Of a stretch of DNA of 64,000 nucleotides, positions 7,398-56,604 are shown in pieces. The DNA is taken from contig CAYSFG010000035.1 in NCBI GenBank assembly GCA_964430545.1, positions 4,463-68,462 of the forward strand, in the 5' to 3' direction. The notes under the pieces were generated by a model. It ran no database searches. It was not told where the DNA came from and worked only from the letters and a program-made list of their open reading frames with translations. This DNA comes from Candidatus Woesearchaeota archaeon (GTDB lineage Archaea; Nanobdellota; Nanobdellia; SCGC-AAA011-G17; GW2011-AR18). How positions within the stretch are numbered: position 1 is the first letter of the stretch; every line of letters begins with the position of its first letter. A program made the position numbers and the translations under genes.

Positions 7398-9722
7398 ATG
7401 GTAAGTATGGAAGAAATACAAAAAAAATTTAAATTGATAAACTCTGAAGTTTCTAAAGTTGTAATTGGACAGGATAAAGTTGTTGAACAATTATTAGTAG
7501 CATTATTATGTAATGGGCATGTTTATTTAGAAGGATATCCGGGATTAGCAAAAACATTATTAGTAAAAACAATATCAAATATAATGGATTTAAAATTCTC
7601 AAGAATACAAGGTACACCAGACTTATTACCTAGTGATGTAACTGGAACTTATATAATAGATGAAAGCAAAGGAAAAAAAGAGTTTAAATTTCAACCAGGA
7701 CCAATATTTGCAAATATAATATTATTAGATGAAGTTAATAGAGCCACCCCTAAGACCCATTCATCAATATTAGAAGCAATGCAAGAAAGACAAGTAACTG
7801 TAGGAAATGCAACATATAAATTAGAAGAACCGTTCTTTGTATTAGCAACTGGAAATCCTATTGAGCAAGAAGGAAGCTTAACATTAGATCAATCAGTTTT
7901 TATAAATGGAGAATTAAAAACAGGACATGAATTATTAGAACAAGTTAAAAATAATAATACCCAAATATTAAAAAATGGAGATTTTGATTTATATAAACTT
8001 GAAGATTCATATACATATTCTTTAAATTCTAATGGAAAACTTAAGAAAAGTGAATGTTATCTTTATACTTTGCCTTATGATGATGAAATTATAAAGGTAA
8101 AAACTAGAATTGGAAGAGAAATTAAAGTTTCTAAAAATCATCCTTTTTTAATAAATGAAAAAGGAGAAATAAAATGGAAGAAAGCAGAAGAACTAATTGA
8201 AGGAGATTATTTAGTTACACCGGCAGCATTAAATGATGAGTATCATACAGAAGAAGTAGTTTCACATTTAGGTATATTAAATGAATTAAATAAAAAGTAT
8301 AAAATAATAAAATATGAAGAATATTTAAAATTAAAAGAACATAAAGAAATAAGCTTACCATCTTGGATATTAAATTTAAACTCTGAACTAAGAAAAGAAT
8401 TTTTGAAAACATTTATTTCATTAGAAGGATGCATAAGAGATAATATGATAAAAGTTTCACAAGCAAATAAAAATAACATTAATATTTTATCTTATTTATT
8501 ATTAAAAGAGGGTATAATTTCATTGTTTTTTGAAAAGAAGAAAAAAAATCATAGTGATTATGTAATAAAAATACAAGGAGAAGACTTTTTAAAATATTTA
8601 TTAAATATAGGATGGCTAAACGAAGAAACAAGAATTGAATGGTTAAATAGAGCAAAAAATGGAAAATTTTCATCTTTCAGAGTAATACCTACACCAAGAA
8701 ATCTTGTATTAAGACTTGTAAATTTATTAGGAATAAATTTAGTTCATACATACAAAAATCGAAAAAACTTTGTTAATAGGGAATGGTATTGTGGATATAA
8801 ATCTATAAAAGAAGGAAGAGAAAATATTTCCTTAGATATGTTTAAATTAATGCTTAATGGAATGGAAAAGGAGATAAATCTTAGAAATAATGTTGATTTA
8901 AATAATATTTCTAAGTCAAAAGATATAAAAAATACGGCGATTTTATGTGGCTTATCTATTAAAGATATTGAAACAAATATTAACATACCTTTTAATAAAA
9001 TTTCTAATTATTATGAAAATAATAATAGCAAACATTCACAACAAATAATAACTTGTGTTAAAAATGAATTTTTAAACAGACTCGAAGAAGCAAAATCTAT
9101 ATTAAACTATTTAAAAAAATTAGCAACAGAAGAAGTGTTATATGACAAAATAGAAAAATTATCTTATGAACCATATAATGGATTAATATTTGGATTGACA
9201 GTTCCAGGATTGCAGAATTATATTGGAGGTTATGGTGCTTGTGGTATTAATCATAATACTTTTAAATTATCAGAGGCACAAGTTGATAGATTTTTATTTA
9301 AAATAAATGTAGAATATCCTAAAATAGAAGAAGAATTAGAAATAGTTAGTAAATACAGTGAAATAACACCAGCTGAGATAAAAATAAAAACAGTATTTAC
9401 AAGTGAAGAATTAATAAAACTACAATCTTATGCAAAACAAATACCTATAGCAAAAGATATATTAAAATATGCTGTAGATTTAGTTGTTAGTACAAGAAAT
9501 AATAAACAATTAATTGAATATGGGGCAAGTCCAAGAGCTAGCATATCTTTAATAATGGCTGGAAAAGCAAGAGCATTAATTAATGGAAGAAAATATGTAA
9601 GTAAAGATGATATTAATGTAATGGCCTTACCTGTATTAAGACACAGAATAATAATCAGCTTTGAAGCAGAAAGACAAAATATGACAGAAGACGATGTGAT
9701 AACTAAATTAATTAAGAAATAA
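7398..9722 (+). CDS. MoxR-family AAA+ ATPase interrupted by an intein
   Basis: Walker A 'GYPGLAKT'. The extein junctions rejoin to '...ATGNPIEQEG|TFKLSEAQVDRF...', which resembles the conserved MoxR block NPIEQEGTYPLPEAQLDRF. The protein is 774 aa against about 310-320 aa expected for MoxR. Confidence 0.85.
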   Translation: MVSMEEIQKKFKLINSEVSKVVIGQDKVVEQLLVALLCNGHVYLEGYPGLAKTLLVKTISNIMDLKFSRIQGTPDLLPSDVTGTYIIDESKGKKEFKFQPGPIFANIILLDEVNRATPKTHSSILEAMQERQVTVGNATYKLEEPFFVLATGNPIEQEGSLTLDQSVFINGELKTGHELLEQVKNNNTQILKNGDFDLYKLEDSYTYSLNSNGKLKKSECYLYTLPYDDEIIKVKTRIGREIKVSKNHPFLINEKGEIKWKKAEELIEGDYLVTPAALNDEYHTEEVVSHLGILNELNKKYKIIKYEEYLKLKEHKEISLPSWILNLNSELRKEFLKTFISLEGCIRDNMIKVSQANKNNINILSYLLLKEGIISLFFEKKKKNHSDYVIKIQGEDFLKYLLNIGWLNEETRIEWLNRAKNGKFSSFRVIPTPRNLVLRLVNLLGINLVHTYKNRKNFVNREWYCGYKSIKEGRENISLDMFKLMLNGMEKEINLRNNVDLNNISKSKDIKNTAILCGLSIKDIETNINIPFNKISNYYENNNSKHSQQIITCVKNEFLNRLEEAKSILNYLKKLATEEVLYDKIEKLSYEPYNGLIFGLTVPGLQNYIGGYGACGINHNTFKLSEAQVDRFLFKINVEYPKIEEELEIVSKYSEITPAEIKIKTVFTSEELIKLQSYAKQIPIAKDILKYAVDLVVSTRNNKQLIEYGASPRASISLIMAGKARALINGRKYVSKDDINVMALPVLRHRIIISFEAERQNMTEDDVITKLIKK
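7875..9257 (+). mobile_element. intein (461 aa) with probable LAGLIDADG-type homing endonuclease domain inside the MoxR ATPase
   Basis: Block A 'SLTLDQSVFINGE' begins immediately after EQEG. Block B-like 'KVSKNHPFL'. Endonuclease-like 'FLKTFISLEGCI'. C-terminal 'GINHN' is followed by Thr (+1). Removing the insert restores a contiguous MoxR. Confidence 0.75.
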
Positions 9723-27206: not shown

Positions 27207-27233
27207 TTGATATATATTCTATAAAATATAGGT

Positions 27234-27250
27234 TATATATATATATATAT
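27234..27250. repeat. (TA)8 dinucleotide microsatellite abutting a TTTAAATA TATA-like box
   Basis: 'tatatatatatatatat' followed by 'ttaaatac'; lies 48 nt upstream of the likely TTG start (27298) of the secreted-protein gene. Confidence 0.8.
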
Positions 27251-27285
27251 TTAAATACTTAAAAAAATATAATAATATAAAAATA

Positions 27286-27996
27286 GTGGTGATTATATTG
27301 GAACATAAATATAAAATTTTAACAGGAACGATATTCTTATTTATTGGATTATCAATGTTATTTTTTGTATCAAATACAATAACAGGAAATACAGCAAGAG
27401 AATCAACAGGAAATACAATAGGAAATACAACAGGAAATACAATAGGAAATACAATACCAAGAATAATAAATGTAAGTGCATATGCTGGTTATATGGCGGA
27501 TTGTGAACCTTCAGAAACTGGTTTTATAGGTTTCCGTAGTTGTCCTAGAAGAAATGATTATACTATAAATGATAATGATTGGTTGAAATTTTATTTGAGT
27601 ACGAATATACCAATGCATTCATGCTGGATTAGTTCTTTACATGATAGATATGGAAAAACAAATAAGCCTACAGCTCTAATTACCCCCAAAATTATTATGC
27701 ATAAAATTACCTCTACTTATTTTTATGTATCAATATATTCAAATGATGGCGTTCAACTATTATTTAATCAAAACCCAATTAATCCCTATGAATATTTCCC
27801 TTTATTGCAACAATCAATTTTAAAACCTGGAAGTAAATCATGGGATACTATAGAATTTGAATGCATTTCGGCAGACTCACAAGGTCAGATAACATTACCA
27901 GTTATTTCTTATAAAAAATCAAGATCAAATCATGGTGGGTGGTTATCATTATTTTGTCCAGAAAATGGAAATAATCGTGCAGATTGTGGGAAATAA
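27286..27996 (+). CDS. secreted/surface Cys-rich protein with N-terminal signal-anchor (pilin-like class III signal?) and GNTx tandem repeats; paralog of 38164-38667
   Basis: SD GGTGAT at 27288-27293. The likely true start is TTG 27298, giving 'MEHKYKILTGTIFLFIGL...TGNTA', which aligns with 'MENKNKLYLGSVFLVLGL...TGNAA' of the paralog. Six Cys; 'NVS' and 'NTT' sequons; ends 'DCGK'. Confidence 0.55.
   Translation: MVIILEHKYKILTGTIFLFIGLSMLFFVSNTITGNTARESTGNTIGNTTGNTIGNTIPRIINVSAYAGYMADCEPSETGFIGFRSCPRRNDYTINDNDWLKFYLSTNIPMHSCWISSLHDRYGKTNKPTALITPKIIMHKITSTYFYVSIYSNDGVQLLFNQNPINPYEYFPLLQQSILKPGSKSWDTIEFECISADSQGQITLPVISYKKSRSNHGGWLSLFCPENGNNRADCGK
27385..27456 (+). repeat. in-frame 12-nt tandem repeat (ggaaatacaaya; 4 contiguous copies plus one nearby) encoding GNT[IT] repeats
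   Basis: Exact or near-exact 12-mers at 27409, 27421, 27433 and 27445, and a diverged copy at 27385. Confidence 0.75.
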
Positions 27997-28114
27997 ATTA
28001 ATTATTTTTAGTTTATAGTTAAATAAAAATAAACTTCTTTATATCTAATAATTTATACCGTTTGTTATATTTTATATTAGTAAAACATATAAAACTTAAA
28101 GAAATTATAAAACT

Positions 28115-29653
28115 ATGCTAAATAATAAAAAAGTAAATTATTCTTTAATACTAATAATATTATTAACATTATTCCTAAGATTATTTTGGTTAAATCATAC
28201 AATATTAGAAGGAGATATGTTTAGAGATTTAACTATTGCCGATAATATTATTAAAGGAAATATTAGATTAGTTGGAATAACTGCAGGGATAGAAGAAACA
28301 TCAACTCAACAATCATTTGGTCCTATAATGTATTATATACTTGCTTTTTTAATGTTAATATCTAAAAATCTTTTATTTATTGTAGGATTTGTGGCTTTAT
28401 TAAATTCATTAGCTGTGTTATTAACTTATTATTTTTGTAGAAAATATTTTGATGAAAAAACTGCGATAATTGCTTCTTTATTATATGCTATAAACCCATG
28501 GGCTATATATATGAGCGATATATTCTGGAATCCCAATTTTTTACCGATATTTTCAATATTATTATTTTATTTTTTATTTAAATTAATTATAAATGAAAAT
28601 AATTGGGCTTTTCCTATAACCAGCTTTTTAATAGCAATAATGCTAAACTTTCACCTAACACCATTATTTTATTTACCAATATTAATTTTATCAATATTAT
28701 TATTTAGAAGAGATATAAAACTTAAATATTATTTTTATAGTTTAATAACTTTTTTATTACCATTTATACCCTTTATTTATTTTAATTTAAAACACGGATA
28801 TTCATTACTAGGACCAGTATTATATGGTTCAGTAAGAGAATCAAGCACATTTTTTACAAGTTTAATAGAATCTATAGGAATACCTATAATGTTAGCTACT
28901 AATTATTTAGGAAAGTATGTTTATGGAGAAAGTTTTATTTTTTATAATAAAATAATGTATTATCTGGTTTTATTTATAACTGCTATAACAGTATTATTAT
29001 TTGGATTAGGATTATTATATTTAATTTTACAAATAAGAAAAGATATAATTTTAAAGAATAATACTAAGGTAAAATATTATTTAATTTTATTTATTATAAT
29101 TATACCTATGTTATTACAATTTATAAGATTTAGCAATATAAGCCCACACTACTATTTTATGTTATATCCAATACAATTTGTATTACTAGGTTTAATAATT
29201 AAAAAATTAATAGAATATAAAAATCTTAAAAAAATAACTTATTTTATACTTGTTTTAATAATTTTAATCAATTTATTTACGATATATGCCTTACATGATT
29301 ATATAGAAAAAAATGGAAGCACAAAATATGGGGAATTTAGTATATCTTATAAAAATAAACAAGAAGTAATTAATTTTATAGTCAATGATTCAAAAGAACA
29401 ACCAATAAAAATACTATTTTATGGAAGAAGTTATAAAAGTTTTAAATACTTATTTGATAATCAAAACATTAAAATAGATTATAAAACTATAGATAATAGT
29501 GATAATATTAAAAATTTTAATGGTTATTATTTAATATTAGACAAAGTATCTTATCATAGAGTAATATTAAATAAAGAACAAGAAGACTTTTTTAATAATT
29601 TAAAGATACATTATATTATAAGAAGCGTTGATTTATACAAAATTAAAGAATAA
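28115..29653 (+). CDS. polytopic membrane protein, GT-C-fold (ArnT/PMT-like) glycosyltransferase candidate
   Basis: 512 aa; about 11 TM helices in the N-terminal two-thirds, then a soluble C-terminal domain. Confidence 0.45.
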   Translation: MLNNKKVNYSLILIILLTLFLRLFWLNHTILEGDMFRDLTIADNIIKGNIRLVGITAGIEETSTQQSFGPIMYYILAFLMLISKNLLFIVGFVALLNSLAVLLTYYFCRKYFDEKTAIIASLLYAINPWAIYMSDIFWNPNFLPIFSILLFYFLFKLIINENNWAFPITSFLIAIMLNFHLTPLFYLPILILSILLFRRDIKLKYYFYSLITFLLPFIPFIYFNLKHGYSLLGPVLYGSVRESSTFFTSLIESIGIPIMLATNYLGKYVYGESFIFYNKIMYYLVLFITAITVLLFGLGLLYLILQIRKDIILKNNTKVKYYLILFIIIIPMLLQFIRFSNISPHYYFMLYPIQFVLLGLIIKKLIEYKNLKKITYFILVLIILINLFTIYALHDYIEKNGSTKYGEFSISYKNKQEVINFIVNDSKEQPIKILFYGRSYKSFKYLFDNQNIKIDYKTIDNSDNIKNFNGYYLILDKVSYHRVILNKEQEDFFNNLKIHYIIRSVDLYKIKE

Positions 29654-31669: not shown

Positions 31670-32491
31670 ATGGTAGATATAAAAAAGGTTTTATTTGTAA
31701 ATCCTAAACCTCAGGTTTCTCAGGTAATAATGGAAGCAACACAATATCCACCACTAGGAATAGCTTATACTGCGGCTTATTTAGAAACTCATGGAATAGA
31801 ATGTAAAATTATAGATGCAGATATTTTAAATTTAGAAAATGAAGAAATTTATGAAAATATAAAAAATTTTAATCCTGATATGGTAGGAATAACATTTAAT
31901 GTAGCAAAAGTACAGGAAGCAATAACAATATCAACTTGGATAAAAAATACTTTAGGAAAAATAGTTATTTTAGGAGGGCCATCTTCATCAGGAGATGTTA
32001 AAGAAGTATTAAAAAAATCAAAAGCAGATTGTATAGTAAAATCAGAAGGAGAAATAGTTACATTAAATATTGTACAAACAAAAGCAGATTTTAAAAACAT
32101 AAAAGGTATAGTTTATTTAAATGGTGAAGAGTTAATAGTAACACCAGACCAAGAACCAATAAGAGACTTAGATTCATTACCTATACCTGCATATCATTTA
32201 TTACCTCCATTAAAATTATATAAAACCAGGGCAAGAAAAATGCCAGTAGTTCCTATGGTCACAGAAAGAGGATGCCCCTATGGTTGTATGTTTTGTAATT
32301 CTGCAAAAACAGGATTCAGACCAAGAAGCCCAGAAAATGTTGTAAAAGAAATAGAAACATTAATCAATAAATTTGGGGTGAAACAAATAGATATCTTAGA
32401 TGATAATTTTACTTTTAATTTAGATAGAGCACATAAAATATGTGATTTAATATTGGAAAAAAAAAATAAAAATATTAATAACTTTTCCTAA
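31670..32491 (+). CDS. B12-binding radical SAM protein, N-terminal fragment (gene split by frameshift in an A10 run)
   Basis: B12-binding domain 'KVLFVNPKP...PPLGIAYTAAYLETHGIECKIIDADI'; radical SAM 'ERGCPYGCMFC' (CxxxCxxC). Confidence 0.6.
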   Translation: MVDIKKVLFVNPKPQVSQVIMEATQYPPLGIAYTAAYLETHGIECKIIDADILNLENEEIYENIKNFNPDMVGITFNVAKVQEAITISTWIKNTLGKIVILGGPSSSGDVKEVLKKSKADCIVKSEGEIVTLNIVQTKADFKNIKGIVYLNGEELIVTPDQEPIRDLDSLPIPAYHLLPPLKLYKTRARKMPVVPMVTERGCPYGCMFCNSAKTGFRPRSPENVVKEIETLINKFGVKQIDILDDNFTFNLDRAHKICDLILEKKNKNINNFS

Positions 32492-32534: not shown

Positions 32535-33080
32535 ATGGCAAAAGCTGGAGTTTATAGGACAGGAATAGGAATAGAATCAGGAGAACAAAAAATAGTAGAC
32601 GGAATAAAAAAATCATTAGACTTAGAAAAAGTAAGAATAGCAATGAAATGGTTAAGAAAATATGGAATAATCTCATTTGGATATTTCCAATTTGGCTTAC
32701 CTGGAGAAACATTTGACTCAATGCAAAAAACAATAGATTTTGCAAGAGATATAAACCCAAACTGGGCAAATTTTGGAGTAACAACACCATTACCAGGTAC
32801 TTTATTATATAAAATGTTAAAAGATACTAATAAATTAAATACTTCTGAAGATCAAAATATATCTACTGGATTTTATTCAATAAAAAAAGGATATGGTGAT
32901 ACAGAAACTTTAAAAATGCAGGATGTTTTAGATTATCAAAGAAAAGCATGGATGAAGTTTTATTTCAGACCAAGTAAAATGTTTGATGTACTTAAAACAA
33001 TAAAATCCTATGGAGAATTAAGGTGGACATTATCTCTAGCTTTTCCTATATTAAAAGGAATTATAAATAAAGGAAATTAA
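32535..33080 (+). CDS. B12-binding radical SAM protein, C-terminal fragment
   Basis: An alternative frame upstream of the annotated Met continues 'FPNGLRADRLTEELVAKMAKAGVYRTGIGIESG', the canonical radical SAM core, contiguous with the upstream fragment after a 1-nt shift at 32457-32466. Confidence 0.6.
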   Translation: MAKAGVYRTGIGIESGEQKIVDGIKKSLDLEKVRIAMKWLRKYGIISFGYFQFGLPGETFDSMQKTIDFARDINPNWANFGVTTPLPGTLLYKMLKDTNKLNTSEDQNISTGFYSIKKGYGDTETLKMQDVLDYQRKAWMKFYFRPSKMFDVLKTIKSYGELRWTLSLAFPILKGIINKGN

Positions 33081-34717: not shown

Positions 34718-34827
34718 ATTTTAGTGTTATAATAATATTTTAATTAAAAAATTAAATTTTTATATTATATAAATAACCATTTTAATTTATTAGTAAAACA
34801 TATAAAACTTGTAGAAATTCTTAAAAC

Positions 34828-36120
34828 ATGCTAAAAATATATAATGGGAAGAAAAAAGTATTAATATTGGGTGGTGGGTTGTCTGGATTAGCAGCAGCTG
34901 ATAGATTGTTGGATACTCAAGATTATGAAATTTTAATTTTAGAAAAAGCTTCATTTTTAGGGGGATTAGCCTCAAGTTTTCTGAAAGATGGAGAAGAAAT
35001 ACCTAGGTTTAATCATCATATTGTAAGTAGTAATAGGATAACATTAGATTATTTAAAAAGATATAATTTAATGGGTGAAAATATCTGGAAAAAAGTAAAA
35101 ATGGCCATATGTGTATATGGAGAATTATATAATATAAATACTTTAATGGGTTTATTAAAATTTAAGTTTTTAAGTTTAAAAGGAAGAATAAAATTAGGCC
35201 TTTTTGGAGCTTACTTAATATTTTTAATGGATCCAGAAAAAATACCAGATAATATGGATGCAGAAAGTTGGTTATTAAAATATGCAGGAAAAGAAGTCAC
35301 TGAAAAAGTATGGTATAATTTATATGCTAGAAATAAATTTAATTTAAACTTAAAACAGATATCTGCAAAACAATTTGCTAATAGATTATATGAAAAAGAA
35401 GGATATGATGATTTTACTTACCCTATGAAAGGAATACAGGGAATGATAGATGGATTGGAAAGAGATATAAAAGATAAAAAAGGAAATATACTTATGTCTG
35501 TAAATATAAAAGAACTCGATATAGAAAATAAAACAATTAAGTATATTGTAGATGATAAAGAAGAAAAATATTATTTTGATATTATAATTAATACAATACC
35601 TGTACCAGAATTATTAAAATTTACAAAAGGATTACCGAAAGAATATATAAAAGAAATTAAAAAATTAAGATATGTGCCTGTTGTTGGATTATGTTTTGGT
35701 ACAAAAGAATATTTAGACAAAGATAATTATTGGATAAATCTAATAAATGAAAGAATACATGTAATCTACCAACATTCATTATTAATAGATAAATATAAAT
35801 CAAAAGTATCATGGTGTATAAGATATGGTGGAAGTGAAGAAGATTTAATTAAAACAGATGAAGATATAAAAGAAAAATATTTGGAAGTAATTAAAAAATA
35901 TTTTCCAGAAATGAAATTAGAATGGTGTATGGTATTTAGAGAAAAATATGCAGAACCAATATATGATAAAGAGTATATAAAATATTGCCCTAAATATAAA
36001 ACACCAATACCTTATTTATTTAACTCAGGAATACAAGTAACATTCCCTAAAATAAGAAATATGAATGTGGCTTTAGAATCTGGAATAAAAGTTGCAGAAA
36101 TAATTATGGGGAAAAAATGA
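34828..36120 (+). CDS. FAD/NAD(P)-binding oxidoreductase (amine-oxidase / phytoene-desaturase / UDP-galactopyranose-mutase-like Rossmann family)
   Basis: N-terminal dinucleotide-binding 'VLILGGGLSGLAAADRLL...ILEKASFLGGLA'. Confidence 0.6.
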   Translation: MLKIYNGKKKVLILGGGLSGLAAADRLLDTQDYEILILEKASFLGGLASSFLKDGEEIPRFNHHIVSSNRITLDYLKRYNLMGENIWKKVKMAICVYGELYNINTLMGLLKFKFLSLKGRIKLGLFGAYLIFLMDPEKIPDNMDAESWLLKYAGKEVTEKVWYNLYARNKFNLNLKQISAKQFANRLYEKEGYDDFTYPMKGIQGMIDGLERDIKDKKGNILMSVNIKELDIENKTIKYIVDDKEEKYYFDIIINTIPVPELLKFTKGLPKEYIKEIKKLRYVPVVGLCFGTKEYLDKDNYWINLINERIHVIYQHSLLIDKYKSKVSWCIRYGGSEEDLIKTDEDIKEKYLEVIKKYFPEMKLEWCMVFREKYAEPIYDKEYIKYCPKYKTPIPYLFNSGIQVTFPKIRNMNVALESGIKVAEIIMGKK

Positions 36121-38035: not shown

Positions 38036-38103
38036 AAAAATTTGAATATTAGAAAGGTATAAATATATTTTGATTATTAAAGTATATGCTGTAATATGGA
38101 TGT

Positions 38104-38118
38104 TATATATATATATAT
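38104..38118. repeat. (TA)7 microsatellite abutting a TTTAAATA TATA-like box
   Basis: 'tatatatatatatat' followed by 'ttaaataac'; lies 46 nt upstream of the ATG at 38164. Same architecture as 27234-27257. Confidence 0.8.
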
Positions 38119-38163
38119 TTAAATAACTATTAACTTAAAATATAAAATATAAGAGGTGATTAT

Positions 38164-38667
38164 ATGGAAAATAAAAATAAATTATATTTAGGTAGTGTAT
38201 TTTTAGTTTTAGGATTATTTGCTATATTTTTAAGTAGTAGTTATACTGGAAATGCAGCATTTAATAGATTACCAAGTACACCAAGTTCAGGAAATCAAGC
38301 TGGAATTGCTAATTTAGCAGGATCTAAATTTGAATGTATAAAACTAAGTGCTCCACTTGCTTGGACTTTTGATAATAATGGTAATTTAAATTCAACACTT
38401 AATTCTTCCCAAGTTGATGCTAGACTCACAGGTTATGGAAATTGTAGAAGAACTGGTTATAATTCACTGTGTCTAATAGATAGGCATAAAATGACTGTGG
38501 ATAAAACTAACAATCAATGCCCCCTGTACGGCACTAATATAAAATATATCTATACTAGTGATTCGATAGAAACATGTGATAATAAACCTAAAAGAATTGA
38601 TATAACATGTCGTGTAGGTTATAGTCAAGATATTTCTTATATGGATGAAGTTTTATGTTGTAAATAA
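38164..38667 (+). CDS. secreted/surface Cys-rich protein with N-terminal signal-anchor; paralog of 27286-27996
   Basis: SD GGTGAT at 38155-38160. 'MENKNKLYLGSVFLVLGLFAIFLSSSYTGNAA'. Eight Cys; 'NST' and 'NSS' sequons; ends 'LCCK'. Confidence 0.55.
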   Translation: MENKNKLYLGSVFLVLGLFAIFLSSSYTGNAAFNRLPSTPSSGNQAGIANLAGSKFECIKLSAPLAWTFDNNGNLNSTLNSSQVDARLTGYGNCRRTGYNSLCLIDRHKMTVDKTNNQCPLYGTNIKYIYTSDSIETCDNKPKRIDITCRVGYSQDISYMDEVLCCK

Positions 38668-38836
38668 AAGTAATAAATTATTTTTTTATTTTTCTTTAAT
38701 ATAAAAAAAAAATTATATAATTTTTTGATTAAAACTTATTTATTATTAATTAACAACAAACAAAATATAAACTTATTAATCTTTTTATGAATCAATTATT
38801 CGAAACCTTTTTAATATATAACAAATTTTTTAAATT

Positions 38837-44010: not shown

Positions 44011-45132
44011 ATGGGATTAGGAGAAACTATACTAAAAGCTACTACAAAACCTACAAAAGTTTTAAGATTATTTGGAAATGGCCTGCAAAGTTTTATTTCT
44101 GGAAGAAAAGCGTCATCTTTACCTTATAGATTACAAATAGAAAATGGAAATATATGCAACTTAAGATGTACTATGTGCGCTTTAAATGTTATGAAAAGAA
44201 AAAAAGGAATGATGAATCTTGAAAAATTTAAAGAAGTATTTGATACAGTAAAACCAGCTTATGTAAATTTAACTGGTTATAGTGAAATGATTTTAAATAA
44301 AGATATGTTTGATATAATAAAATATGCGAAAAGTAAAGGAGCATTTGTAAAAATAGATTCTAATGCAACACTAACTACAGATGATAAAGCTAATAAAATA
44401 ATTGATTCTGGAATAGATTTAATATCAATAAGTGTTGATGGAGCAACCAAAGAAACATATGAAAAAATAAGAATACCTGCTAAATTTGAAGTTGTAATAG
44501 AAAATTTAAAAAATTTAGTAAAAGTAAGAAATGAAAGAAAAAGTAAAACACAGATTCATATGGCGTTTGTATGTCAATTGCCTAATTTTCATGAACTACC
44601 TGCAATAATAAAATTAGCAGATGAATTTGGTGTAGACCAACTAAATAGCCCCTTTGTTACTGAATATGACATTAAGATGAATGAAAAATATAAACTAGAC
44701 AAAGTAGACTTTGAAAAATTAAAATCAATATACAATGAAGCTTTAGAAGTTAGTAAAAACGTAAAAGTAAAAACAAACATAGAAAGTATAGGATATTATC
44801 TTAAAAAAATAGAAGCAGGAACAATGTTTAAGATGAATGATGCACACTGTTATCTGCCTTGGTATAGCGCTTATATAACTTGGGAAGGAGATGTATTACC
44901 ATGTTGTTATTATTATGATGGACAAGTAAACTTTGGGAATATATTTCAAAAATCATTTAATGAAATATGGCATAGTAATGAATATCAGAATTTTAGAGAA
45001 CAATTAGTTAAACAAAAAATAGGCATATGCGCAACATGTGGTTATAGAGATGATTTTTTACAAGATAGATTTGCTAAATTTACAAAATATTTACCATTCA
45101 CAAAATTAATAAGTAATAGAAAAAGTTTTTAA
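44011..45132 (+). CDS. radical SAM protein with C-terminal SPASM/twitch-like Cys-rich domain
   Basis: 'GNICNLRCTMCA' (CxxxCxxC); C-terminal 'CYLPWYSAYITWEGDVLPCCY...GICATCG'. Confidence 0.75.
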   Translation: MGLGETILKATTKPTKVLRLFGNGLQSFISGRKASSLPYRLQIENGNICNLRCTMCALNVMKRKKGMMNLEKFKEVFDTVKPAYVNLTGYSEMILNKDMFDIIKYAKSKGAFVKIDSNATLTTDDKANKIIDSGIDLISISVDGATKETYEKIRIPAKFEVVIENLKNLVKVRNERKSKTQIHMAFVCQLPNFHELPAIIKLADEFGVDQLNSPFVTEYDIKMNEKYKLDKVDFEKLKSIYNEALEVSKNVKVKTNIESIGYYLKKIEAGTMFKMNDAHCYLPWYSAYITWEGDVLPCCYYYDGQVNFGNIFQKSFNEIWHSNEYQNFREQLVKQKIGICATCGYRDDFLQDRFAKFTKYLPFTKLISNRKSF

Positions 45133-45133
45133 A

Positions 45134-46627
45134 TTATTTTTTAACTTCTAATATTAAAACTATAGGCTGAGCTTTATTTTCAGATAAATAAAACGATGCA
45201 ACTGGCTTTAATTTATCTTGATTAGTTTTAACACCTTCTATAAATTTATCAGGCATTTGATTAAAAAAAGATAGTACAACATACTTAATTTTTGGATTAG
45301 AAAAAGCTTCATTAATATCCACAGCATTATTTTGTCTTTCAGAATGATACTGAATCTCTGCAGAAGTAGCTGGAGAAATATAACCCTCATCTTTTGAAAG
45401 ATGTTGATTAAGCCATATACCTGCTTCCTTAACTTGCTTAAATGAATCAGCTTTTGAGATTATATTGGAGTTAGCCATTTCAATATTGGAATTAATAATA
45501 AAAACAATAATTAAAATAACTATAATAGTAGAAATGGATTTATTATACTTTCTTAATATATTATACATTTTTGATAATACTAAACCTGCTGCTAAAAATA
45601 AACCTACAAAAAAATTAAAATAATACCTCTCTTCAATATAATAACCATAGTTGATCTTTGCTGCAAATAAAATAGTTAAAACAATCCACAAAAATAAAAA
45701 TAATTTATTACCAAGAGCTTTATCTTTATTTTTAATAATAATATCCAAGCCAAGAAATATTTGTAATAAATATAAAAAACCTAAAATAGATAAAACCATT
45801 AAAATAATACCTTCAATAGAAAGAAAAGATTTTAATTGAGAAGTTAAAGAACTAATAAATGATCTTCCTAATGTTGTTCTAGTACCAAATGTCTGTAAAA
45901 AAAAAGCAATAGGAGAACCATAAGAAATATACTGCCAAATAATAAAAGGAATTATCAAAATAAAACTTATTAATGTACTTTTAATTAAATGTTTATTTTT
46001 AATAAAAGAAAATCTTTCAGTAATTATCAAATATAAAATAATTAGTATAGCAACTAAGGCATTTGTATACTTCATCAAAAATCCAAGAACTAAAGTTGGA
46101 ATTAATAACAAAGTGTAAATATTATTTTTATTATTTATATATCCTTTAAAGAAAAATAATATCGTTAACAACCAAAATGTTAATACTGGGACATCAACTA
46201 ATAACCTATATGAAAAAAATAAATGAGACCAAAATACAGCAGTAAAAATAGAAGCAAATAAAGCAGTAAGATCATCAAACATTTCTTTACCAATAAGATA
46301 AATGAGTATTATATTTGAAAAATAGAATAAACCCATAAATATTCTTATTCCTATTTCATTAATATTTAATTTAAAAAATAAAGCTGTTATTAATGAAAAT
46401 AAAATTGGTCTTATGGGACTAAATGTAGCTATTGGAAAATCCTTGGCTAGATATTTGGCATAATTAAGATAATCAGCTTCGTCAAACCACAAAGCTTGAG
46501 AAAATGTTTTTGTAAAATAATAAATGAAGTAAATTAATGATAATAACAAAATAATAAGAAATATTTTATTATAAATTGATTTATTATAAAATTCTCTAGA
46601 TTTTTTTATGATACTATTAATAATCAT
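45134..46627 (-). CDS. GT-C-fold membrane glycosyltransferase (GT39/GT83-like)
   Basis: 497 aa; about 12 TM helices; first loop 'WFDEADYLNYAK' (DE motif). Confidence 0.45.
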   Translation of the reverse strand: MIINSIIKKSREFYNKSIYNKIFLIILLLSLIYFIYYFTKTFSQALWFDEADYLNYAKYLAKDFPIATFSPIRPILFSLITALFFKLNINEIGIRIFMGLFYFSNIILIYLIGKEMFDDLTALFASIFTAVFWSHLFFSYRLLVDVPVLTFWLLTILFFFKGYINNKNNIYTLLLIPTLVLGFLMKYTNALVAILIILYLIITERFSFIKNKHLIKSTLISFILIIPFIIWQYISYGSPIAFFLQTFGTRTTLGRSFISSLTSQLKSFLSIEGIILMVLSILGFLYLLQIFLGLDIIIKNKDKALGNKLFLFLWIVLTILFAAKINYGYYIEERYYFNFFVGLFLAAGLVLSKMYNILRKYNKSISTIIVILIIVFIINSNIEMANSNIISKADSFKQVKEAGIWLNQHLSKDEGYISPATSAEIQYHSERQNNAVDINEAFSNPKIKYVVLSFFNQMPDKFIEGVKTNQDKLKPVASFYLSENKAQPIVLILEVKK

Positions 46628-46661
46628 ATATTTATACTTAATCTATAATTTATAATACTTT

Positions 46662-52959: not shown

Positions 52960-54639
52960 ATGATAATATTAGGGGTACATGATGGACATGATTCTGGAGC
53001 TAGCTTAATAAAAGATGGAAGAATAATAGCCGCAGTAAACGAAGAAAGACTAAATAGAACAAAATTATTTACTGGATTACCAAAGTTATCAATAGAAGAA
53101 GTCTTTAAAATATCAGGTATAGAAAAAAGTAAAGTAGAAGGAATTGCTTTATCTGGAACATCAGGATTAATGGCAAATATAGGATGGGAAAATGTTTCTT
53201 TTAAAAAAAAATTATATCAAACAATAGCAAACAATACTCCATTTCCTAAATATATAACATTTTCACATTTACAAAGAACAATATTTAATCCATTAAGAGA
53301 TAAAACTACAGAAAAATATCTAAAACAAAATGGATTTGATGCAGAAATAAAATATTTTGATCATCATAAATGTCATGCAGCAACAGCATATTATGCATCT
53401 GGAAAAAATGAATGTTTAATATTTACAACAGATGGAAGTGGCGATGGACTAAGCGCTAGTGTATACCATTGTAAAGATGGAGAGATGAACTTAATTAAAG
53501 AAATACCAACATTTCATTCATTAGGATATTTCTATGCATATGTAACGATGCTTTTTGGATTTAAGATGTTTAAGCATGAAGGGAAAACAACAGGCCTAGC
53601 AGCATTTGGAAATCCAGAAAAATGTTATAGTTATTTTGAAAAATATTTTGACTTCAAAGATGGAAAATTAGTAAATACCTCAGGATTAATAGGAAAACCA
53701 GCATATGAATATCTAAAGAAAGAATTAGAAAGTTATAGCAGAACAGATATTGCTGCAGCTTTACAGAAAAGATTAGAAGATGTAATGATAAAATTCGTAA
53801 AATACTATGTAGAAAAAATAAAAGTTTATGACTTAGCATTAGCTGGCGGGGTATTTGCAAATGTAAAATTAAATCAAAAAATATTAGAACTACCAGAAGT
53901 AAATAGCGTTTTTATATATCCAAATATGGGAGATGGAGGATTAGCTAGTGGGGCAGCTTTTAATATGTACAAGATTAAAAATGATAAGTTAAGGCCTTAT
54001 AGATTAGATAATGTTTATTTTGGTTCTAGTTTTACTGACGAAGAAATTCTTAATGAAGTAAAAGAACAAGGATTAGAAGCTGAATATGTAAAAGATATAG
54101 AGAAATATGCAGCTGAATTAGTGTCTCATAAAAAGATAGTTGGAAACTTTAGTGGAAGAATGGAATATGGACCAAGAGCATTAGGAAATAGAAGTATAAT
54201 AGCAGACCCAACAGATAAAACTATAAATGATTGGCTAAATAAAAGAATGCGTCGCTCGGAATTTATGCCTTTCGCCCCTTCAATAATGAAAGAATATTGT
54301 AATGATTATTTTGAAAACTTTGAAAAAGCAGAATATCCTTCAGAATTTATGACAATAACCTTTAATTGTAAAGAAATAGCAAGAAAAGCAGAAGCTGTAG
54401 TTCATGTAGATAATACTGCAAGACCACAAGCTGTGACAAAAACTAATAATTTAAGATATTATAAAATATTAGATAATTATAATAAAATAACTGGACTCCC
54501 AATATTTATCAATACAAGTTTTAACATACATGAAGAACCAATAGTATGCACACCAAAAGATGCATTAATAAGTTTGAAAAAAGACTGTGTTGATGTAGTA
54601 ACAATAGGAAATTATGTTGTTTACGATAAGAATAATTAA
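52960..54639 (+). CDS. carbamoyltransferase (NodU/CmcH family)
   Basis: N-terminal 'ILGVHDGHDSGASLIKDGRIIAAVNEERLNRTK' and a C-terminal carbamoyltransferase domain; 559 aa. Confidence 0.85.
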   Translation: MIILGVHDGHDSGASLIKDGRIIAAVNEERLNRTKLFTGLPKLSIEEVFKISGIEKSKVEGIALSGTSGLMANIGWENVSFKKKLYQTIANNTPFPKYITFSHLQRTIFNPLRDKTTEKYLKQNGFDAEIKYFDHHKCHAATAYYASGKNECLIFTTDGSGDGLSASVYHCKDGEMNLIKEIPTFHSLGYFYAYVTMLFGFKMFKHEGKTTGLAAFGNPEKCYSYFEKYFDFKDGKLVNTSGLIGKPAYEYLKKELESYSRTDIAAALQKRLEDVMIKFVKYYVEKIKVYDLALAGGVFANVKLNQKILELPEVNSVFIYPNMGDGGLASGAAFNMYKIKNDKLRPYRLDNVYFGSSFTDEEILNEVKEQGLEAEYVKDIEKYAAELVSHKKIVGNFSGRMEYGPRALGNRSIIADPTDKTINDWLNKRMRRSEFMPFAPSIMKEYCNDYFENFEKAEYPSEFMTITFNCKEIARKAEAVVHVDNTARPQAVTKTNNLRYYKILDNYNKITGLPIFINTSFNIHEEPIVCTPKDALISLKKDCVDVVTIGNYVVYDKNN

Positions 54640-54955
54640 GGAGAATGTTATGAAAAAATCATTATTAAAAATTTTAATATGCCCATTATGTAAAAATAAT
54701 TTTAAATTAAAAATTCAAGAACAAAATGAAAAAGAAATACTAGAAGGAACACTAAAATGTAAATGCAATGAATATAAGATAAATAATGGAATACCAAGAA
54801 TGGTGATAGATAAAGATTTAACTAATGTGAAAAAAAGAACATCTAAAGTATGGGGATATCAATGGAATTATTTTAAAAATTTTATAAAAGAAAGTGAAGA
54901 ACAATTCTTAAGATGGTTAACGCCAATAAAAAAAGAATACTTTCAAAAAAATTAA
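54614..54955 (+). CDS. Trm112-like zinc-ribbon domain, N-terminal fragment of a frameshifted Trm112-methyltransferase fusion
   Basis: 'LLKILICPLCKNNFKL...LKCKCNEYKINNGIPRMV'; the likely real start is the Met at about 54650. Confidence 0.45.
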   Translation: MLFTIRIIKENVMKKSLLKILICPLCKNNFKLKIQEQNEKEILEGTLKCKCNEYKINNGIPRMVIDKDLTNVKKRTSKVWGYQWNYFKNFIKESEEQFLRWLTPIKKEYFQKN

Positions 54956-55623
54956 TATTAGACGCCGGATGTGGAACAGGAAGACATTCTTATTTCAGTG
55001 CAAAATTTGGAGGTAGAGTAATAGGAATAGATTTAAGTAATGCAGTTGAAACAGCAAGGGAAATAAATAAAGATAAAAATGTAGAAATAATACAAGCAGA
55101 TGTATATAATTTACCTTTTAAAGATAACACTTTTGATTTTATTTATTCAATAGGTGTTATACACCATTTACCCAATCCTACTAAATGTGTAGAATCATTA
55201 ACAAAAAAACTAAAACCCGGAAAACAAATAAGTATATGGTTGTATGGCTATGAAAATAGTTTAATAATGGTAAAATTAATAGAACCATTTAGAAAACTAC
55301 TTAAAAATATTAATTTAAGACTTCTAAACTATATTTCTTTAATAATAACAATACCTTACTTTCTAATAACTAAACTAATCTATAAACCAATAAATAAATT
55401 AAGAATAAAAATTTTAGAAAATATCTTACCATACAATGAATATTTTTATCAATTCTCAAGCTTCGGATTTAATCATCACTGGATGAACGTATTTGATAAA
55501 TTAAATGCACCATTAGCTAATTATTATAAAAAAGAAGAAGCTAAAGAATTATTAAAAGGACTAAAAGATGTAACTATATATCCTGTTAATAATATTAGCT
55601 GGACTGTTCATGGAATTAAGTAA
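54913..55623 (+). CDS. class I SAM-dependent methyltransferase (C-terminal part of the Trm112-methyltransferase fusion)
   Basis: Motif I 'ILDAGCGTGRHS' lies only 17 residues from the annotated Met; the frame is restored with the upstream ORF by a 1-nt shift in the A7 run at 54928-54934. Confidence 0.6.
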   Translation: MVNANKKRILSKKLILDAGCGTGRHSYFSAKFGGRVIGIDLSNAVETAREINKDKNVEIIQADVYNLPFKDNTFDFIYSIGVIHHLPNPTKCVESLTKKLKPGKQISIWLYGYENSLIMVKLIEPFRKLLKNINLRLLNYISLIITIPYFLITKLIYKPINKLRIKILENILPYNEYFYQFSSFGFNHHWMNVFDKLNAPLANYYKKEEAKELLKGLKDVTIYPVNNISWTVHGIK

Positions 55624-56460: not shown

Positions 56461-56604
56461 ATTAAAATAGAAATAAACTGATAAAAAAGTAATTTAAATA
56501 ATTAAATTAATAAATATTTTTTTAAAAAAATTTTATAATTTTAATAAAATAAACTACTTTTTTTAAAAACAAAACTTTAAAAGCAATGTTATTATCCTGA
56601 AATT

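Follow-up and report, generated by a model that had tools for sequence, protein, structure and literature searches.

What does a microsatellite do when it is fused to an archaeal TATA box? In the genome of a Candidatus Woesearchaeota archaeon, two genes whose products carry predicted export signals are each preceded by a run of TA dinucleotides, (TA)n, that passes directly into such a box, and the arrangement raises the question of whether the length of the run affects the expression of the gene behind it. We addressed this question in a window consisting of the whole 64,000-nucleotide stretch of contig CAYSFG010000035.1 that was analysed (assembly GCA_964430545.1, positions 4,463 to 68,462), in which the two tracts begin at 27234 (site A) and 38104 (site B) and precede what we here call genes A and B. 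A preliminary description of this DNA had proposed that the same cassette of TA tract, TATA-like octamer, Shine-Dalgarno (SD) sequence, and start codon stands before two paralogous surface-protein genes, and that slipped-strand changes in the tract could tune or phase-vary their expression. Our analysis suggests, with about even confidence, that the two sites carry a duplicated 5' expression-and-export module whose unstable promoter tract acts as a graded rheostat.

The proposed architecture was recovered at both sites with small refinements of the coordinates, and its parts, together with the genes that they serve, are as follows; BRE denotes the transcription factor B recognition element upstream of an archaeal TATA box.

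27214-27233 (+): upstream flank of site A, 20 nt, possible regulatory DNA with weak homology to 38084-38103
27234-27250 (+): (TA)8T microsatellite of site A, at the BRE position, read from the sequence
27250-27257 (+): TATA box of site A, TTTAAATA, sharing the last T of the tract
27248-27257 (+): 10-bp palindrome TATTTAAATA, containing the TATA box, the octamer being the same on both strands
27279-27297 (+): predicted 5' leader of gene A, about 18 nt, with the SD sequence GGTGAT at 27288-27293
27298-27996 (+): gene A, TTG start, 232 aa, with a signal peptide at residues 1-33 (27298-27396) and a mature domain at about residues 55-219
27381-27454 (+): 12-nt in-frame tandem repeat of gene A (GNTI/GNTT units), directly after the signal peptide
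28000-28015 (+): T-rich stretch following the end of gene A, a likely oligo-T terminator of the archaeal type
38084-38103 (+): upstream flank of site B, 20 nt, homologous to 27214-27233
38104-38118 (+): (TA)7T microsatellite of site B, at the BRE position, read from the sequence
38118-38125 (+): TATA box of site B, TTTAAATA, inside the palindrome TATTTAAATA at 38116-38125
38147-38163 (+): predicted 5' leader of gene B, about 16 nt, with the SD sequence GAGGTGAT at 38153-38160
38164-38667 (+): gene B, ATG start, 167 aa, with a signal peptide at residues 1-32 and a cysteine-rich mature part
38681-38693 (+): T7 and T4 runs following the end of gene B, a likely terminator

Both TA tracts are 100 % pure. 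A spacer of 30 nt leads from TTTAAATA to GGTGATTATA (27288-27297) at site A and one of 29 nt from TTTAAATA to GAGGTGATTATA at site B, where GGTGAT lies at 38155. Transcription probably begins near 27280 and near 38148, positions that we placed by applying to both cassettes the distance of 19-23 nt that separates TATA box and start in the leaderless genes of this genome. The folds of both leaders are no better than those of shuffled sequences. Each gene is followed by T-runs and then by a next gene with its own TATA-like box, and genes A and B look monocistronic from this arrangement.

Several comparisons show that the resemblance between the sites lies well beyond chance. The (TA)8T and (TA)7T tracts exceed every other TA tract in the 64 kb, the next reaching 11 bp, and the expectation for a 15-nt TA tract is 0.09 per window in dinucleotide-preserving shuffles. 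The motif GGTGATTATA occurs in the window at these two sites only, and the composite TATATTTAAATA-N28-31-GGTGAT, found twice, has an expectation of 0.00 in shuffles. Across 252 kb from 24 related Woesearchaeota loci, three TA tracts reach 10 bp and the longest measures 13 bp. Sites A and B derive from one duplicated module, and their likeness is a matter of homology rather than coincidence.

The limits of this homology define what was duplicated. Between A and B, the tract plus TATA box is 100 % identical and the segment from the SD sequence to the start codon matches at 12/13 positions; the 20-nt upstream flank reaches 70 % (14/20) against a shuffle null of 50 +/- 7 % with a maximum of 68 %, and the codons of the signal peptide reach 68 % against a null of 53 +/- 3 %. 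The spacer between TATA box and SD sequence (68 %; null 62 +/- 5 %) does not differ significantly from shuffles, and the next 150 nt, which encode the mature region, stand at 55 % against 51 %. Protein comparison with BLASTP gives the same boundary, aligning A and B over residues 1-33 only (MEHKYKILTGTIFLFIGLSMLFFVSNTITGNTA versus MENKNKLYLGSVFLVLGLFAIFLSSSYTGNAA, E = 3e-6), a shared N-terminus that has the features of a Sec-type signal peptide or N-terminal anchor. The first codons also correspond, TTG-GAA-CAT-AAA-TAT-AAA (MEHKYK) in gene A aligning with ATG-GAA-AAT-AAA-AAT-AAA (MENKNK) in gene B, and because of this homology with the gene B start we assign the start of gene A to the TTG at 27298. 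The NCBI annotation begins gene A at an internal ATG at 27355 (213 aa, P0002), cutting most of the signal peptide, and the Logan gene call begins it at a GTG at 27289. A class III (pilin) signal and a lipobox were ruled out by inspection of the leader peptides, and no cysteine lies in or near either of them.

Beyond their N-termini, the two proteins share nothing that we could detect. A word-indexed search of 5.8 billion proteins returned only self matches for A and B. With phmmer against 1.8 billion representatives, residues 55-219 of A matched residues 161-307 of P0004 at 30 % identity (E = 3e-7 library-wide); this distant relative of the mature domain of A, the sole one found, is another signal-peptide protein, and the mature part of A is on this evidence a real domain. 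A second phmmer match, P0005, is probably spurious. Gene B matched neither the mature part of A nor P0004, and no relatives of its own mature part were detected. Single-sequence AlphaFold models are confident only for the N-terminal helix of both products (pLDDT, the predicted local distance difference test, 37-38). The preliminary description of the genes as paralogous surface-protein genes thus holds in part: the first 33 residues, the signal peptide, do align, whereas the mature proteins are unrelated and give no alignment, and the signal peptide that both carry is the sole basis for calling either a surface protein. What A and B share, as far as sequence can tell, is an expression-and-export module, and the genes as wholes are not paralogous.

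The setting of the module supports an archaeal reading of its promoter. The window has a GC content of about 23 % and encodes AglB/STT3, many glycosyltransferases, a flippase, methyltransferases, a diphthamide synthase, and an intein-bearing MoxR ATPase; the GT4 gene adjoining site B has 73 % identity to a Candidatus Woesearchaeota groundwater genome, and its close matches all come from metagenome-assembled genomes of Woesearchaeota, Pacearchaeota, or Nanoarchaeota. The host is a Woesearchaeota-like DPANN archaeon, in agreement with the archaeal origin that the preliminary description implied, and the TATA-box reading of TTTAAATA is therefore appropriate. A bacterial promoter reading was tried and rejected: hits in a sigma-70 scan were fewer than in shuffled sequence, and the search for intrinsic terminators came up empty. 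No Rfam family and no ribosomal RNA gene was found in the window. Genes A and B both lie within an AglB N-glycosylation island.

A survey of the 90 nt upstream of 57 open reading frames (ORFs) in the window shows how the cassettes relate to the promoters around them. In genes that stand first in an operon, TTTAWATA or a near match to it usually lies with its end 19-23 nt ahead of the start codon and no SD sequence follows, and 6 of the 15 exact occurrences of TTTAWATA in the window end in that interval (binomial P = 8e-5). As the box peaks at this distance, messenger RNAs are probably leaderless and the genome appears largely so. The octamer TTTAAATA is thus the same box that the genome uses elsewhere. 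SD motifs are rare, with 11 occurrences of GGTGAT on both strands of the whole window, and genes A and B are among the few with an SD-bearing leader; GGTGAT and GAGGTGAT both fit the canonical anti-SD sequence of archaea, and a GGTGAT-type motif can be read directly in front of both genes. Both cassettes depart from the pattern of the window in that their TATA boxes end 40 nt (A) and 38 nt (B) before the start codon with an SD sequence following, and in that ATATATA, the TA tract, occupies the position just 5' of the box where other promoters are A-rich (AAAAC, AAAATA). Relative to a canonical archaeal BRE-TATA promoter, which initiates roughly 22-24 nt past its TATA box, the octamer is the consensus of the genome and the distances suit a short leader that carries an SD of the GGTGAT type, whereas an alternating TA tract fills the BRE position, in place of the A-rich motif of the other promoters, and the TATA box sits within a 10-bp palindrome. 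The strength that the preliminary description ascribed to the two promoters is putative, and the A-rich motif of the other promoters is missing from them.

Having placed the tracts within a promoter, we asked how they vary. We compared the window with contigs from the independent public runs ERR4904393 and ERR3478687, retrieved by exact-protein look-ups; look-ups with gene A (TTG or GTG start) and three neighbour genes returned nothing because gene calls differ, and no paper mentioning either run was found. The three assemblies are 99.9 % identical yet represent distinct genotypes, with private single-nucleotide polymorphisms (SNPs) in each run and one SNP common to both runs relative to the window. 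Their tracts read as follows.

Site A tract: (TA)8 in the window, (TA)8 in ERR4904393 (L044), (TA)9 in ERR3478687 (L005)
Site B tract: (TA)7 in the window, (TA)8 in ERR4904393 (L001), (TA)7 in ERR3478687 (L002)

The slippage variation that had been predicted is therefore seen as one-unit differences at both tracts among three consensus assemblies, and repeat length is not invariant. In a pairwise comparison over 57.7 kb we counted 28 SNPs and 6 insertions or deletions (indels), and all six indels fall in simple repeats: the two TA tracts, the 12-nt in-frame repeat of gene A, and three poly-A runs. Length differed in 2 of 4 comparisons for TA tracts of 15-17 bp, in 0 of 14 for those of 8-10 bp (Fisher P = 0.04 against the long tracts), and in 3 of 381 for A/T runs of 6 or more (Fisher P = 8e-4 against the long tracts). 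No loci of the region are more prone to slippage than the two (TA)n tracts, which show single-unit changes between near-identical populations. Contig L005 terminates exactly 11 nt past its (TA)9 tract, at the last 31-mer with a left anchor; if Logan assemblies use k = 31, as we presume, the graph would branch here were an allele of (TA)10 or longer to coexist in the sample.

One-unit differences of this kind might also reflect polymerase chain reaction (PCR) stutter or the choice of an assembler, the tracts themselves being invariant in the organisms. Dinucleotide repeats do stutter in PCR-based libraries, and the Logan contigs are fragmented around site A. However, consensus contigs from separate runs traverse site B cleanly with differing lengths, the shorter TA tracts show no changes at all, and the private SNPs mark the three assemblies as distinct genotypes, and we regard a purely technical origin of the differences as very unlikely.

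If the tracts do vary, the position of the repeat constrains what the variation could do. In every allele seen, the tract spans 15-19 bp and the 6-7 bp beside the TATA box, which transcription factor B (TFB) would contact, read ATATAT(A), and the distance from the TATA box to the transcription start site is unchanged by repeat number, the tract lying upstream of the TATA box and being longer than a BRE. This geometry contradicts the earlier suggestion that slippage alters the BRE/TATA context. Since unit changes leave both the BRE-proximal sequence and the TATA-to-start distance intact, an ON/OFF switch is unlikely, and with it the phase-variable expression that had been envisaged.

The ON/OFF alternative nevertheless has points in its favor and a bacterial precedent. 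It holds that the two promoters are phase-variable contingency loci in which slippage alters BRE/TATA context or a critical spacing and so toggles each surface protein. Length is polymorphic at both loci, both products carry export signals, gene A varies in size through its in-frame repeat, and poly-A frameshifts occur in nearby glycan-modification genes, which together resemble a multi-locus phase-variable set. According to PMC2651432, which summarises van Ham et al. 1993, (TA)9-11 between the -35 and -10 elements of the Haemophilus influenzae hifA/hifB fimbrial promoters alters their critical spacing. On that account the cassettes share with hifA/hifB the repeat unit, a similar length, a location in the promoter of genes for exported products, and polymorphism between close strains, and site B also faces a divergent gene. 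Unlike the hif tract, which as described there switches a sigma-70 promoter ON and OFF through spacing, the tract here lies upstream of an archaeal TATA box with constant core spacing, and the changes seen amount to one unit only. The module thus shows three features of a bacterial contingency promoter (a pure repeat, polymorphism between strains, and an exported product) but lacks the defining one, a repeat between spacing-critical elements, and we consider true ON/OFF switching quite unlikely.

The reading that we favor instead is that of a graded rheostat. The duplicated module joins a conserved flank of small size, a pure (TA)n in the place of the BRE, the consensus octamer TTTAAATA, a predicted leader of 16-18 nt, and a 33-residue Sec-type signal peptide. 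It stands before two otherwise unrelated, lineage-specific genes for predicted secreted or cell-surface proteins, probably monocistronic insertions in the N-glycosylation island, and the GGTGAT-type SD of the leader is unusual in this mostly leaderless genome. A longer tract would present the TATA-binding protein (TBP) with more overlapping TATATATA registers upstream of the canonical box, and each added unit would shift the upstream DNA, including the weakly conserved 20-nt flank, by 2 bp or about 70 degrees relative to the core promoter. By analogy with UGT1A1 and nadA, the effect would be graded at most, on the level of transcription or on the choice of start site.

Known systems lend this model different degrees of likeness. 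In mechanism, the nearest analogy is the A(TA)nTAA polymorphism of the human UGT1A1 promoter, associated with Gilbert syndrome, where a variable (TA)n is contiguous with the TATA element of a TBP-dependent promoter and the effect is quantitative; in contrast to our cassettes, UGT1A1 is a eukaryotic germline polymorphism rather than a rapidly varying microbial locus, and it lacks a BRE/TFB context. The (TAAA)n repeat of Neisseria meningitidis nadA, which acts via NadR and IHF, stands, like the TA tracts, upstream of the core promoter, where it adjusts how much of a surface protein is made rather than simply turning it ON or OFF, but nadA is bacterial with known regulators, whereas no shared palindrome was found upstream of the cassettes. 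In modular design, the cassettes resemble the variable surface lipoproteins Vlp of Mycoplasma hyorhinis and Vsp of M. bovis, families with a lipobox cysteine and a poly(A) tract between -35 and -10: in both, a conserved module of promoter, leader, and signal peptide stands before divergent mature regions, the promoter holds a simple repeat, and an in-frame coding repeat varies (here in gene A only). Unlike these families of many adjacent genes, the present system has two genes only, 10.9 kb apart, without a lipobox.

The more serious competitor to a rheostat is that the microsatellite is neutral: a mutational by-product of an extremely AT-rich genome, seeded by a TATA-like sequence close to the TATA box and inherited via the duplication, with no measurable effect on expression, so that the TATA box, the SD sequence, and the signal peptide are the only functional parts. 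Since all indels, those in ordinary A7 runs included, are confined to simple repeats, slippage is how indels arise in this DNA in general; the tract occupies no spacing-critical position of an archaeal core promoter, and no conserved regulator site was found upstream. Yet both copies have retained a long, pure tract fused to the TATA box while the adjacent spacer diverged to background, TA tracts of such length are otherwise absent from the window and reach at most 13 bp in the related loci, and a (TA)n fused to TATA does alter output in TBP-dependent promoters such as that of UGT1A1. We regard neutrality as possible, though not probable.

Further instances of the module would have helped to distinguish these readings, but none emerged. 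An exact-pattern scan for the cassette returned no match in GTDB representative genomes, among which this genome is not included, and four matches in JGI metagenomes and three in IMG/VR, none with a related gene downstream. A leader-peptide profile run against the N-termini of ORFs in the window and 38 other loci found no further copy, and the small gene is missing from 23 related Woesearchaeota loci in which the neighbouring GT4 gene occurs. No third copy of the cassette was found in the window, the related loci, or the genome, metagenome, and viral collections. On two unrelated metagenome contigs, (TA)13 is fused to TTTAAATA (L008 at about 8724, minus strand, and L009 at about 4908), with no cassette-like gene downstream of either. 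A related Woesearchaeota contig (L027, 5328-5360) carries a (TA)5-6 tract whose end lies 20 nt ahead of the start codon of a lipoprotein-like gene (MQKRNLVIFSLLVVSILLIAGC...); here the tract appears to act as the TATA box itself, giving a leaderless messenger RNA.

Several points weigh against a rheostat. The length differences are of one unit in three consensus assemblies, and stutter in PCR or the choice of an assembler may account for them. Instability is to be expected of any (TA)8 tract, so polymorphism alone is not proof of function. With no further copies of the module, conservation therefore cannot test selection on the tract. The homology of the two upstream flanks is marginal, and no palindrome common to both was found. 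Finally, the start sites, the strength of the promoters, and their dependence on repeat number are all predicted from sequence.

The TA tracts are not the only simple repeats in the island that differ between the assemblies. The 12-nt repeat of gene A is the top-scoring tandem repeat of the window (score 104), and its GNT(I/T) block has 4 or 5 units, with one extra unit in ERR4904393 (P0003/L044). An A10 run at 32448-32457 splits a B12-binding radical-SAM gene of the window into ORFs 31670-32491 and 32535-33080, and ERR3478687 has A9 at this locus and an intact gene of 469 aa (L003, 4299-5708); the difference marks either a possible frameshift switch at a poly-A run or a fault in the assembly. 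Similarly, an A7 run at 54945-54951 (compared at L048, 10185-11159, and L049, 10185-11158) splits a methyltransferase gene into ORFs 54614-54955 and 54913-55623 in the window and in ERR4904393, and ERR3478687 has A8 and an intact gene of 324 aa. A third poly-A indel concerns the intergenic A7 run at 56524-56530, with one A fewer in ERR4904393. It is conceivable, though rather unlikely in our estimate, that the two (TA)n tracts as rheostats, the 12-nt repeat of gene A, and the poly-A runs as switches in the B12/radical-SAM and methyltransferase genes together form a multi-locus contingency set of simple repeats, like those of bacterial pathogens, in the surface and glycosylation island of an episymbiotic-type DPANN archaeon.

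Promoter-like sequences recur elsewhere in the island as well. A second duplicated module, at 28076-28122 and 34789-34835, carries TTATTAGTAAAACATATAAAACTT, identical over 24 nt, and the same first codons, ATGCTAAA; it precedes a PMT_2 glycosyltransferase gene (28115) and a gene of the amine-oxidase family (34828). The motif AAAAGTATTATAAATTA occupies the TATA position upstream of the genes at 44011 (+) and 45134-46627 (-), in the latter case within 46628-46660, and its sharing gives another hint, at the level of sequence, that promoters have been reused in the island. Elsewhere in the window, the MoxR-type AAA+ ATPase gene at 7398-9722, which sits inside a BatA/VWA/DUF58 operon, is split by an intein that contains a LAGLIDADG homing-endonuclease domain.

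Repeat-driven variation of phase or expression is a hallmark of host-adapted bacteria, and DPANN archaea attach to host cells, so that their surface proteins and glycans form the interface with host and viruses. A 2025 review places the distribution of phase-variable loci in archaea among the subjects of future work (PMC11868660), and earlier surveys of repeats that included archaea were statistical only (PMC2831843, PMC3315296). Our searches turned up no paper on variation through repeats at TATA promoters of archaea or in DPANN archaea. Whichever reading of the tract holds, the start codon of gene A is corrected to the TTG at 27298, and if the tract is neutral, the locus still offers a clean example of a promoter-leader-signal-peptide module reused on unrelated genes. 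The contingency set, if it is real, would give the Archaea a first concrete example of surface variation that is driven by repeats and acts on a TBP/TFB-type promoter. A slippery repeat fused to the TATA box, if functional, would mean that stochastic variation has been wired into a eukaryote-like TBP promoter, in a system that would be simple to test with templates differing in n only.

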